From: a virus
Taxonomy: Duplodnaviria > Caudoviricetes
Virus record (IMG/VR): IMGVR_UViG_3300037751_000573
Location: 1 to 34,120 of that record
DNA: 34,120 bases
Reading direction: 5' to 3' (one strand)
The notes under the pieces are model-generated. The model was not told the origin of the DNA. It ran no database searches and saw nothing but the letters and a program-made list of their open reading frames with translations. A program made the translations under genes and the position numbers. The stretch's first letter is position 1; each line of letters begins with the position of its first letter. Of the stretch, positions 1 to 34,120 are shown piece by piece.

Positions 1-21
1 GATAATCTGTAAAATACCCAC
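1..21 (-). CDS. Possible 5' start of a cassette ORF (MGILQII...), truncated by the window edge
   Basis: On the - strand, SD AGGGAGG (34-28), 6 nt spacer, GTG at 21-19, open to position 1. Only 7 codons are visible. Confidence 0.45.
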
Positions 22-39
22 TTTGTGCCTCCCTATAGT

Positions 40-127
40 GGCTAACAAAAAATTCAGTGCGACCGCGAGTAGCCCTGCTATATCACCCGCCAACGGTGGC
101 GCGGTCGCGGTAATTTAGGCGTTATGC
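40..127 (+). mobile_element. attC: Integron attC recombination site (88 bp)
   Basis: R'' GGCTAAC (40-46), 5-bp spacer, L'' ATTCAGTG (52-59), perfect stem GCGACCGCG (59-67)/CGCGGTCGC (100-108), L' CGGTAAT (108-114), 6-bp spacer TTAGGC, R' GTTATGC (121-127). This is canonical attC architecture, including the extra base in L''. Confidence 0.85.
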
Positions 128-131
128 AGGA

Positions 132-1460
132 TCATGTCGGGGTCACCAGATTGCGAAAACTCGAGCACCCCTCCAGCCAAGCCACCTCCACCGTGCCGGT
201 CGGCCCGTGGCGCTGCTTGCCGATGATCAGCTCGGCGATGCCCTTGTGCGGGTTGTCGTCCGCCTTGTTGTACATCTCGTCGCGGTAGATGAAGACGATC
301 AGGTCGGCGTCCTGCTCTATGGCTCCGGACTCCCGCAGGTCGGAGAGCATGGGCCTTTTGTTGGGGCGGCTCTCCAGGTTGCGGTTGAGCTGCGACAGGG
401 CCAGCACCGGGATGCCAAGCTCTTTGGCCATGGCCTTGAGCGAGCGGGAGATCGCGCTGATGTCCTGCTCCCGCTTGTCGCTGCCCCCGCTGCCGACCAT
501 GAGTTGGAGATAGTCCACCACCACCAGGCCGATGTTGTATTTGGCCTTGAGCCGCCGCGCCCTGGTGCGCAGGGCCATGGCTGTGAGGTCCGGGGTGTCG
601 TCGATGTAGATTTTTGCCTCGGCCAGCCGACCATAGGCGTGGGTGAGTTTTACCCAGTCCCGGTCCTGCAGGCTGCCCTGCCTGAGCTTCCTGGTGTCGA
701 GGATGCCGAGGTCGGCAAACAGCCGTTGGGTCTGCTGCTCCTTGGACATCTCCAGGGAGAAGACCGCCACCGGCACTCCGTCTTCCACCGCCGCCTGGCG
801 CACCGCGTTCATGGCCAGAGCCGACTTGCCCATGCCCGGCCGCCCGGCCAAGATAACCAGATCGCTGGGGCAGAGGCCGGAGGTCATTCGGTCCAGGTCG
901 TGGAACCCGGTGCAGACCCCGGCGATGGGTGAGCCGCTGTTCGCCTGGGCCTCGATCTCGCCGAAGACCTTTTTTGCCAGTTCCCGCATGGGCATAACGG
1001 TGCTGCCGGAGGATTCGGCCAACAGGCGCAGCAGTCCGGCCTCGGCGACATCCAGGGCGATATCCGGGGCCTGGTGTTCGTAGCAGCCGGCTTCGATCTC
1101 CTGGGCGGACTGGATCACCTGCCGCAGCCGGGCGTAATCGCGGACCAGGGCCGCATAGCTGGCCAAGTGGGCGGTGAAGGGGATCAGGTCGGTGAGGGTG
1201 CCCAGGTACGACGGCCCGCCGATCAGGTCGAGCTTGCCGGCCGCCCGGAGCTTTGCCGACACGGTGATCAGGTCGATGGGCTCCGCGGCCTGGGAAAGCT
1301 CAAAAATGGCCTGCCAGATCTGGCGGTGAGCCTCGCGATAGAAGTGGCCGGCCTGGATGATGTCGGCAACTTCGTTGATGGCCTCGGCCTTGAGCAGCAC
1401 GGTGCCGAGGATGGCCTGCTCCGCCTCCAGGTTGTGGGGTGGGATGCGCTGGTCTTTCAT
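132..1460 (-). CDS. dnaB: Replicative DNA helicase DnaB (phage-encoded)
   Basis: N-terminal PPHNLEAEQAILG, Walker A GRPGMGKS, LVVVDYLQLM, LSQLNR, DLRESGAIEQDAD, KQRHGPTG. Confidence 0.97.
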   Translation of the reverse strand: MKDQRIPPHNLEAEQAILGTVLLKAEAINEVADIIQAGHFYREAHRQIWQAIFELSQAAEPIDLITVSAKLRAAGKLDLIGGPSYLGTLTDLIPFTAHLASYAALVRDYARLRQVIQSAQEIEAGCYEHQAPDIALDVAEAGLLRLLAESSGSTVMPMRELAKKVFGEIEAQANSGSPIAGVCTGFHDLDRMTSGLCPSDLVILAGRPGMGKSALAMNAVRQAAVEDGVPVAVFSLEMSKEQQTQRLFADLGILDTRKLRQGSLQDRDWVKLTHAYGRLAEAKIYIDDTPDLTAMALRTRARRLKAKYNIGLVVVDYLQLMVGSGGSDKREQDISAISRSLKAMAKELGIPVLALSQLNRNLESRPNKRPMLSDLRESGAIEQDADLIVFIYRDEMYNKADDNPHKGIAELIIGKQRHGPTGTVEVAWLEGCSSFRNLVTPT

Positions 1461-32189: not shown

Positions 32190-32571
32190 GAAACCCCTTT
32201 CCCCATGCTTGTCTTAATTGTTTGAGGGTATATCTTTTATCATCATCTCCAGCTTCTTCACTTCCAATTATTGGTTCTGGTAAAGAGATATCTCCATAAT
32301 AGCACCATCCGACAACATCAATAATATTATCAGAATACCTGTCTTTTGGCTCCTGTATCCACGTTCCTTCTTCATATTCAGAATATTCTTTTTTAATACT
32401 ACTGTATGTGTAAACTCCGCTTAAAATAGAGTTTCCATCAGTAATAAGTACAATTTCAGAAAGCACCACGCCTTCTCTGGATGATCTTTCTATATTATCT
32501 GGATGTAAAGGTTCTTCATCTATTCGTGGCAATTCTATAGCCGGGTTTTTCCACTTAATCGTTGTTATCAT
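32152..32571 (-). CDS. Hypothetical AT-rich protein (W..P..ELP ... VVGW pattern, DUF551-like)
   Basis: ATGA-coupled at 32571; markedly AT-rich. Confidence 0.6.
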   Translation of the reverse strand: MITTIKWKNPAIELPRIDEEPLHPDNIERSSREGVVLSEIVLITDGNSILSGVYTYSSIKKEYSEYEEGTWIQEPKDRYSDNIIDVVGWCYYGDISLPEPIIGSEEAGDDDKRYTLKQLRQAWGKGFHDGKKNEPCHGA

Positions 32572-32768
32572 GTCGGTTCCTCCACAACCAGCACCCGCAA
32601 CCCCTCTTCCCACCGCTCCACATCCGCCACCCTGTACCGGTAATCCCGGCCAAAGCGAAAGGCGGGCAGGGGGTTGCGCTTCCTCTTCCGCCAGCGGCGC
32701 AGGGTTTTGGTCTCAACCCGGAACCGCTCGGTCATCTCCTTGGTGGTGTAGTATGCCTGCATGCTCAT
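32568..32768 (-). CDS. Excisionase-like winged-HTH protein
   Basis: YYTTKEMTERFRVETKTLRRW...LPAFRFGRDYRYR. Confidence 0.8.
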   Translation of the reverse strand: MSMQAYYTTKEMTERFRVETKTLRRWRKRKRNPLPAFRFGRDYRYRVADVERWEEGLRVLVVEEPT

Positions 32769-33382
32769 ACCCCGGCCCTCTCGATCACCCCGTCCAGGTC
32801 GGCAGCCAGGAAGGAGAGGTACTGGTCGGTGGACTTGATATCCTTATGGCCCAGGGCCTTGCTCGTGGCGCGGAACGGATCCACCGGTTCGCCCATTGCC
32901 AGCCGGGCCAGCAGCTCCTGATAGATGTTGTTGGCAAAGGTCTTGCGCATGGTGTGGCTGCCCAGGCGGCCGGAGCATCCACCGGCGCGGCAGGCGTTAT
33001 GCACCACCCGCCAGGCCTGCACCCTCCCTAAACTCTCGCCGGTGCGCCGGGAGGGGAAAAGCGGATCGTCCCGATGGATAAAGCCCAGCCGGGAGAGCGC
33101 GGCCAGCCAGGGGGAGATCGCTTCCCGCGCATGGCTGTTGAGCTTGACCGTGCGGGATTCCCGCTTGCCCTTCATGTTGCGCCGTTGCACCGTCACCCTG
33201 GCGGCGATGGTCCCGGCCTGCTCCACCACATCGCCCAGGGTGAGGGAAAGTATCTCCGAGATACGAAAGCCGGTGTTGACCCCCAGGCCGAAGATAGCCC
33301 GGTCGCGCACGGCCATGGCGCCGCGCATGCAGCCGGACACCTGCGCCACCTCAGTGCGGCTCAACGGCAGACACCCGCGCAT
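32765..33382 (-). CDS. Small catalytic-domain-only tyrosine recombinase
   Basis: GGAGG SD then MRGCLPLS; TGFRISE (R), MKGK (K), HTMRK, LGHKDIKSTDQY; no N-terminal core-binding domain. Confidence 0.88.
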   Translation of the reverse strand: MRGCLPLSRTEVAQVSGCMRGAMAVRDRAIFGLGVNTGFRISEILSLTLGDVVEQAGTIAARVTVQRRNMKGKRESRTVKLNSHAREAISPWLAALSRLGFIHRDDPLFPSRRTGESLGRVQAWRVVHNACRAGGCSGRLGSHTMRKTFANNIYQELLARLAMGEPVDPFRATSKALGHKDIKSTDQYLSFLAADLDGVIERAGV

Positions 33383-33490
33383 GGGAAACCCTCCGGTCGC
33401 ATTTTTTGCAATGCGCAAAGTTGTTGAGGTCCAGGGCCTCGCAGACGTCCGGGTTGATGGCGCCGGGCTGGTATGGGCAGGCTCGTTTGC

Positions 33491-34120
33491 TCATGCGCCG
33501 ATCACCATATCCATGGGGCTGACTACCCCGGCACCGCGGCTCATCACATGCAGGTATATCTGCGTGGTGCGGATGTCGTCGTGGCCCAGGAGATCCTGCA
33601 CGGTGCGAATGTCAACCCCGCTTTCGAGCAGGTGCGTGGCGAAGGAGTGGCGAAACGAATGGCAGGAGGCCATCTTGTTAACCTTTGCCCGCCGCACCGC
33701 CAGCTTTACCTGCCGCTGCAAGGCCGATTCGTGCAGGTGGTGGCGGTAGAAACATCCGGTTTGCTTATCCGTGCACAGGTGGGAAGCGGGAAAGATGTAC
33801 TGCCAAGCCAGCTCCTTGGAGGCGTTCCGGTATTTACGGGCCAGAGCCGGTTCCATGGTGGAGCCCTCGTAGCCGTGCGCGAGATCGTCGGCAAGCAGGG
33901 CCTCCGCCCGGGCGACATGCGCCCGCCGCCGGTCCACCGCCGAGACAGGCAAAGGGACGATCCGGTCTTTTTGCCCCTTGCCGAATTTGACATGCAGGGA
34001 GATAACCCGCTTGGCTTCGGCACGACTGAAGACCACCGGCAGGTTTTTCGGCCGCTTGGCCCGAACGAACTGGCTAAAATCCCCGACCTCAACCTGGATC
34101 ACATGCTTGTAAAGAAAAAC
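33491..34120 (-). pseudogene. intI: Integron integrase, 5' part off-window, with an in-frame deletion of box I
   Basis: Frame open to the window end: VFLYKHV...[13 protein letters not shown]. IntI-specific insert PALARKY...WQYIFPA...[19 protein letters not shown]...LLGH...TTQIY. The YG.GLR segment is missing between VISL and HVKFGKG. Confidence 0.85.

Follow-up and report, generated by a model that had tools for sequence, protein, structure and literature searches.

A probable phage-adapted integron with reversed cassettes, divided between the two ends of a temperate phage record

The viral record IMGVR_UViG_3300037751_000573, 34,120 nucleotides long and hereafter called the window (the whole stretch of DNA that was analysed), has an integron recombination site (attC) at its left end and part of an integron integrase gene (intI) at its right end. 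We interpret the window as the greater part of a temperate phage, likely infecting Desulfobulbaceae, in which these two ends form a single integron within the early operon, with cassette genes reversed relative to those of bacterial integrons and likely exchanged among phages by the integrase (IntI); we put the probability of this reading at about 0.85. The finding of a phage-adapted integron with reversed cassettes and a cassette pool common to phages we regard as real, with the integrase of the window copy damaged.

The two ends of the window as one probable integron

The stretch missing between the two ends can be seen in a relative. Locus L003 (record G001) is 94% identical to the window over 118–5058 and 97–99% identical over 32582–34120, and it is continuous between dnaB and intI, with the order dnaB, six attC cassettes, attI, an intact intI, and then the recombinase, HNH and terminase genes. 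A preliminary description of this DNA had joined 34120 to 1 by way of intI, attI and cassettes and had placed these between dnaB and the recombinase/HNH/terminase block; a close relative thus has this arrangement. That description had also proposed comparing relatives at the 3′ junction of dnaB, and there the last attC of L003 differs from that of the window, with the identity between the two stopping, and picking up again, at the attC crossover (between G and TT at 121/122; L003 identity starts at 118). All six L003 attC sites and two in a further viral locus, L181, score 24–45 bits with an attC covariance model that has no matches in phage control DNA amounting to 83,677 bases. An attI beside the start of intI, with a break of identity between G and TT, is present in L003, L005 and L181; the corresponding site falls in the gap of the window. 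At 15–35 bases from the attI crossover (9646–9670 in L003), these regions have a conserved motif containing a short inverted repeat, which could possibly represent accessory IntI sites or an operator.

Contigs of sequencing run X1 tile an L003-type array piecewise, and in runs X1 and X2 an intact intI, or its 3′ part, is linked to the recombinase gene; a scan of viral contigs for DnaB gave one close relative among 12 loci. The second informative genome is G002, a 52-kb phage with other head and tail genes, which has exactly the first 127 and the last 127 bases of the window in common with it and nothing adjacent. Its attC is 100% identical to that of the window, and the visible part of its intI is whole. 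Because G002 and the window end in the same 127 bases on both sides, the break in the window is probably a collapsed repeat, in agreement with the earlier suggestion that the sequence was interrupted in a repeated region.

The left-end attC, noted previously on the + strand, has the R″-L″-L′-R′ boxes with 5- and 6-nt spacers that characterize such sites, and it is the sole match to attC geometry in the 34,120 bases (score 17.25; 20 shuffled sequences gave none at 14.5 or above). With the covariance model it scores 31.0 bits (E-value 8.9e-6, a rough figure), the next-best match in the window reaching 13.3 bits, and it therefore passes the check that the preliminary description had named, with a model built from other arrays: 33 sites from 8 loci outside this phage group, of which 23 come from seven bacterial genome loci and 10 from L197. 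The same geometry scanner had served to choose the training sites, so that the scanner and model tests share geometry. Folding energy, a weaker test, gave z values of -2.67 for the top strand and -1.54 for the bottom strand. The site belongs to the same attC family as those of the relatives. To its left is the start of a putative cassette gene, of which only seven codons are visible; an exact search with the first 29 bases of the window returned only G002, starting at the same base, and the missing cassette gene was not recovered.

The intI previously placed on the − strand at the right edge is confirmed as an integron integrase gene. It matches family TIGR02249 at 235.6 bits, in two stretches over positions 150–314, and the score lies below the cut-off of 265 because the gene is partial, the first 99 codons being missing at the edge. 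An intact relative of 345 amino acids scores 382.4 bits against the same cut-off and aligns over its full length with IntI4 (2A3V), the best solved structure, and the IntI-specific insertion is present both in the window fragment and in this relative.

The gene had been taken as intact, and on this point the preliminary description did not hold. An internal, in-frame deletion of 111 nt costs the window IntI 37 residues. Among them is the arginine of Box I, aligned with position 135 of 2A3V, which we take to be the catalytic arginine; the catalytic residues are intact in L003, L004 and L005 but not in the window. A contig of run X2 has the intact form of intI across the deletion, joined to the recombinase gene, and window stretches without read cover in the runs examined were excluded as evidence. 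Because its IntI lacks the Box I arginine, the array of the window phage is probably frozen if no intact IntI is supplied in trans by another phage or by the host. Loss of intI recurs: apart from the window, G004 has a different deletion, P0002 shows a gap of 50 residues, L240 keeps a remnant of 40 codons, and in L245 no intI follows the PAPS-reductase-like (PAPS) gene. Captured arrays would therefore seem often to be left without an enzyme of their own.

Cassette orientation, cargo and probable exchange

We examined 20 cassettes bounded with the covariance model in five viral arrays (L003, L181, L238, L239 and L240); 16 of these are distinct, and a PAPS cassette is counted five times. Core and inverse core are exactly complementary in 17 of the 20 and differ by one mismatch in the other three. 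In eighteen, the strand opposite the attC top strand carries an open reading frame (ORF) ending no more than 17 nt from the core; in ten of the reversed ORFs the stop codon is the TAA of the crossover core, and the PAPS cassette has its start codon within the loop of the attC. The reversed genes are all co-directional with cro, dnaB and intI. The phage gene that comes after intI in G002, G003 and G004 either adjoins it directly or overlaps with it. In a control set of 80 bacterial genome loci, 14 cassettes were sense, 1 was reversed and 27 were uncalled; the figures for 80 metagenome loci were 3 sense, 5 reversed (all in L064) and 4 uncalled. An orientation test based on the longest ORF was dropped, as shadow ORFs in GC-rich DNA misled it. 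A sigma-70 promoter search, which is a weak test, gave no matches in the L003 array (5900–10000) and 2.2 in shuffled sequences; with this null, and with 18 of the 20 genes on the other strand, nothing indicates a Pc promoter driving cassette genes coded on the top strand. Arrays of attC sites beside an IntI of another clade were also seen at L064 777–5308, L203 4998–9793 and L205 8056–9755, with genes reversed where callable; those of L203 and L205 adjoin a phage repressor-like gene.

The cargo of L003 consists of a C5 methyltransferase gene, a DUF5131 gene, the PAPS gene and three small ORFs; small PHROG families are also represented among the cassette genes. Its methyltransferase cassette has two overlapping frames on the same (+) strand, 6057–6986 (309 aa) and 6076–6972 (298 aa), both of which match DNA-methyltransferase PHROGs (phrog_363 and, weakly, phrog_1008). 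Three cargo genes have PADLOC matches (methyltransferase, PDC-M41B/M30B and SspD), which we do not take as proof of a defence function.

The integrase gene is found at 90–98% DNA identity in four other viral records, three of which have different backbones, and the gene next to it is the recombinase gene, ninB or terL; in L181, intI is at 76% and precedes an HNH gene. A protein search returned eight close IntI proteins, after which the bit score falls from 410 to 353. Among 50,697 GenBank phage records, nine have an IntI-like gene, all at 42% identity or less. One viral sequence with an IntI-like gene, annotated xerD, is L235 (KX853513.1, virus Rctr41k; 4680–9155), where the gene lies in a co-directional run with a methyltransferase gene and attC scores are weak and inconsistent. 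Outside viruses, no IntI above 54% identity was found among the 160 loci kept (80 of 190 metagenome loci and 80 of 136 genome loci). In a FastTree phylogeny of 86 IntI sequences, compiled from tblastn segments of viral, genome and metagenome loci and nine proteins, L003, L005, L181 and P0004–P0008 group together (support 1.0) beside a clade made up of viral loci only (0.868). The deeper nodes are unsupported and L238 is placed elsewhere, and we claim no single origin.

The PAPS protein occurs in nine viral loci and is an attC-bounded cassette in five of them (the L003 and L181 records, L238, L239 and L240); a partial copy in L245 ends at the same core with no attC afterwards, and three distant homologues (45–49%) are free of attC. 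The IntI of L238 is just 49% identical to that of L003, and because the PAPS cassette is present there as well, the cassette pool appears to cross IntI clades. We also note that this 49%-identical IntI (L238 5871–6878) has the same final residues as the IntI of the window, hinting at an exchange of 3′ ends between phage intI genes.

Several joints coincide with predicted crossover points. Identity between L003 and L005 stops at the attI core, a point at which another reading frame terminates with TAA. In run X3, one contig fuses the DUF5131 cassette, at its end, to the attC of a 113-aa cassette, with a 5-nt ambiguity that corresponds to the core; a second contig of that run diverges where the attI core lies, and all that an X2 contig has in common is an attC. 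In L238 one 305-bp cassette is duplicated, at positions 1 and 3, and copy-and-paste duplication is expected from semi-conservative excision, according to the available part of PMC8024014. The distal junctions of the close IntI group, in all three cases examined, are at a phage stop codon (G002 and L181) or 4 nt past one (window). The X3 reordering joint and the L238 duplication are only indirect signs of recombination at these sites, which IntI would catalyse. Because the module and its cassettes recur with changes of order and a duplication exactly at crossover points, their presence in unrelated phages points to a pool common to phages, and the earlier proposal that the phage samples cassettes from host integrons fits poorly with genes that are opposite to those of bacterial cassettes, that belong to phage families and that recur among phages.

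Proposed mechanism and alternative explanations

In the mechanism that we propose, the cassette genes, being coded against attC polarity, would be read from the phage's own early transcript, which would be controlled by CI and would cross both the array and intI, so that no Pc promoter would be needed. Bacterial integrons are controlled by LexA; in the phage, prophage induction would replace that control, with DNA damage turning IntI on and phage replication providing single-stranded attC. Were replication to start upstream of dnaB, the lagging-strand template would contain the bottom strands of attC, a placement that favours recombination in what is available of PMC5371416. The module as a whole would dock in new phages when IntI recombines it into a GTT site that coincides with or adjoins a stop codon, leaving the target gene whole, and a frozen array such as that of the window might be served in trans by the intact IntI of another phage or of the host.

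A further and tentative suggestion, to which we would give rather less than even odds, is that phage integrons build new cassettes from ordinary phage genes. Recombination between an attC and a TAAC at the stop codon of a gene would yield a new circle of gene plus attC, with the inverse core then becoming fitted to the last codon. Four observations hint at such a process: two different genes have an identical attC body of 53 bp, each with its own fitted inverse core; one cassette gene bears two different attC types; cassette families are also found as attC-free phage genes (DUF5131 in G002, at 78% DNA identity, and PAPS-reductase-like genes in L242–L244); and one of three attC-free homologues likewise has the core-forming glycine codon.

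Since IntI and attC are of the bacterial type, the phage might instead have captured a host integron and be sampling ordinary host cassettes, as has been described for phages of Vibrio and Shewanella. Integron fragments of host origin in phages have been published (PMC9892861, in its available part), and the 76% IntI relative is named from a Desulfobulbaceae metagenome-assembled genome (MAG). The contig of that MAG is probably phage L181 itself, however, as it has the same IntI identity and adjacent gene family; cassettes of host type would oppose the phage transcript, in contrast to the 18 of 20 that are reversed; and the phage-family cargo, together with the 54% ceiling on IntI identity among the 160 non-viral loci kept, also speaks against capture, which we consider quite unlikely. 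It is harder to set aside a decaying passenger, an integron that was formerly active and is now inert, with its cassette genes kept as ordinary early genes. Both the absence of Box I from the window IntI and the repeated losses in G004, P0002, L240 and L245 are what decay would produce, but the window attC is intact and the same as that of G002, in which intI is whole as far as it can be seen, and near-identical phages retain an intact intI. Decay would thus apply at most to this copy and not to the system, and we hold it to be improbable, if worth serious consideration. Very improbable indeed is an assembly artefact, in which attC and intI come from another replicon or the window and G002 form a co-integrate through their common segment. 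The identical 127-base ends are the mark of a collapsed repeat and the record is classed as linear and 70% complete, but L003 and the X1 contigs independently link dnaB to attC and intI to the recombinase gene, and the attachment site of the phage is unintegrated.

Some results weigh against the early-operon integron that we favour. The gap was bridged in relatives, and the cassettes of the window itself are visible over 39 bases only. Folding energy sets only one of the six L003 attC sites clearly apart from shuffled sequences. Two of the 20 cassettes, both in L240, fail the reversed-ORF test (in one, a reversed ORF of 154 aa that matches a PHROG stops 6 bases beyond the core), and in one L181 cassette the sense ORF is slightly the longer; across 47 viral loci with 38 cassettes, 11 were called sense (10 of them in L197), 7 reversed, 9 both and 11 uncalled. 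The comparison of orientation and sharing left out chromosomal arrays of Desulfobulbaceae hosts, and the assignment of the host depends on protein names only. The X3 joint is a single contig of depth 5.9, matched at 92% likeness, and may belong to another phage. The deletion junction was seen in none of the four read runs examined and is known from this record only, and expression and induction are deduced from gene direction and from the weak sigma-70 null.

The phage backbone and known integrons

The remaining features of the window (Table 1) are those of a lambdoid temperate phage, with terminase, portal, protease, capsid, connector, tail, amidase, Int, CI (S24), Cro and DnaB identified with Pfam and PHROGs, so that head, tail, lysis, integration, CI/Cro and replication modules are all represented. 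The break in gene order is between dnaB and the short tyrosine recombinase gene, away from the attachment site, and a repeat search of the window gave no terminal repeat, so that the record is not closed. The assembly contains no sequence other than the window.

Table 1. Positions of features in the window
Feature	Position	Strand	Basis and remarks
Start of cassette gene (GTG at 21-19), putative	1..21	-	GGGAGG ribosome-binding-site motif at 28-34 (-), 6 nt ahead of GTG; exits left edge, against attC polarity
attC, last of array	40..127	+	R″ 40-46, 5-nt spacer, L″ 52-59 (extra base at 4th position), L′ 108-114, 6-nt spacer, R′ 121-127
dnaB, replicative helicase	132..1460	-	PF03796/PF00772, TIGR00665 above cut-off; stop 4 nt beyond attC
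Cro-like repressor	5393..5605	-	helix-turn-helix (HTH) families, phrog_769; heads early operon toward dnaB and array
CI-type repressor, S24 self-cleavage domain	5694..6335	+	PF07022 and PF00717
Phage integrase, int	7947..8951	+	phrog_1, PF00589
attP core: tRNA-Leu 5′ half up to anticodon loop	8986..9024	+	phage DNA on both sides
Late block: HNH, terminase subunits, portal, protease, capsid, connector, tail, amidase endolysin	9095..31676	-	Pfam and PHROGs
Small HTH (excisionase-like) gene	32568..32768	-	PF12728, phrog_66
Short tyrosine recombinase, catalytic domain only	32765..33418	-	PF00589; TIGR02249 just 31 bits, hence no integron integrase
Integron integrase intI, 3′ two-thirds	33491..34120	-	TIGR02249 235.6 bits; open at right edge; co-directional with dnaB and late genes
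Junction of 111-nt in-frame deletion in intI	33994..34001	-	8-bp direct repeat; alignment with three intact relatives

The attP core, between the int stop and the lysis genes, corresponds to the first 39 nt of a tRNA-Leu (anticodon TAA) called by ARAGORN in a phage record. Because phage DNA lies on both flanks of this match, with no host flank, the window sequence is in the unintegrated state, as the preliminary description had it. Within 8948–9024, a promoter-like motif recognized by eye (TTGACA-16-TAGGCT) precedes the tRNA-Leu 5′ half, and the phage may restore the 5′ end of the tRNA gene, a less common phage arrangement, and provide it with a promoter. ARAGORN found no whole tRNA in the window, an Rfam scan of the window at gathering thresholds returned nothing, and an Rfam E-value scan of 7400–9200 gave a single chance match.

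The recombinase gene and its coupled HTH gene (32568–33418) follow intI here, precede the array in L181, and are present in L002 free of any integron. The region from the HTH gene to HNH (31676–32582) varies from one close phage to the next, run X1 and L003 having joints at 31676/31985 and 32155/32582; it is a second variable slot, one that has no attC. The named relatives of DnaB are mostly from Desulfobulbaceae, Desulfurivibrio and Thiovibrio, at 52–56%, and the 76% IntI relative carries its Desulfobulbaceae MAG label; the host is likely a member of the Desulfobulbaceae.

Integrons have usually been treated as bacterial tools, and phage copies of them as captured fragments, while here phages appear to have adopted the device: the genes are flipped in a way that suits the phage transcript, the pool seems common to phages with different heads and tails and with two IntI clades, and the breakpoints lie at crossover points. 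Such a system would offer a site-specific way in which the mosaicism of phage early regions, with its joints at gene boundaries, could arise, and the pairs of cassette and non-cassette genes provide a small set for testing how cassettes arise. If the more tentative suggestion about new cassettes were true, the origin of integron cassettes would be visible in phages, and IntI would act as a site-specific driver of phage mosaicism.

In the literature searched, from which subscription journals were largely absent, we found no reversed, operon-embedded phage integron. Among 10,705 phage genomes, Qi et al. (2023, PMC9892861, available in part) reported 3 complete integrons, 1 In0 and 17 clusters of attC sites lacking integrases (CALINs); the complete ones were traced to a Vibrio chromosomal integron, to class 1 integrons on P1, or to a cryptic prophage, and phage attC sites were reported to recombine with IntI1. 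The system described here is like those in having intI, attI, attC sites and cassettes in a temperate phage, and in its methyltransferase cargo. It differs in lying within the early operon, in its reversed genes and in the presence of the module in unrelated phages; systematic reversal is not reported in the main text of that paper, the supplements of which may bear on it.

With sedentary chromosomal and class 1 integrons (IntI4, 2A3V), as presented in the available portion of Cury et al. (2016, PMC4889954), it shares the IntI family (as judged from the intact relative), the attC anatomy, an attI upstream of intI and an attC polarity directed away from intI. Unlike them, it has the cassette genes on the other strand, in the direction of intI, with no match to a Pc-like promoter, and the stop codon is in the core rather than in the inverse core, with some starts inside attC. 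Integrons with an inverted integrase, of the Treponema type (PMC4889954), likewise have intI and cassette genes in the same direction; there it is intI that is inverted relative to attC, whereas here the relation of intI to attC is the standard one, their top strands being opposite in the window, L003, L181 and L238, and the genes inside the cassettes are flipped. Finally, IntI inserts cassettes at short GWT (attG) sites outside att sites in the E. coli chromosome (bioRxiv 10.1101/2022.09.11.507474), and the distal junctions described here are similarly GTT sites, located at phage gene ends. In the available text of that preprint it is cassettes that are inserted, with no reported bias toward gene ends, while in these phages the whole platform appears to have docked at or beside stop codons.

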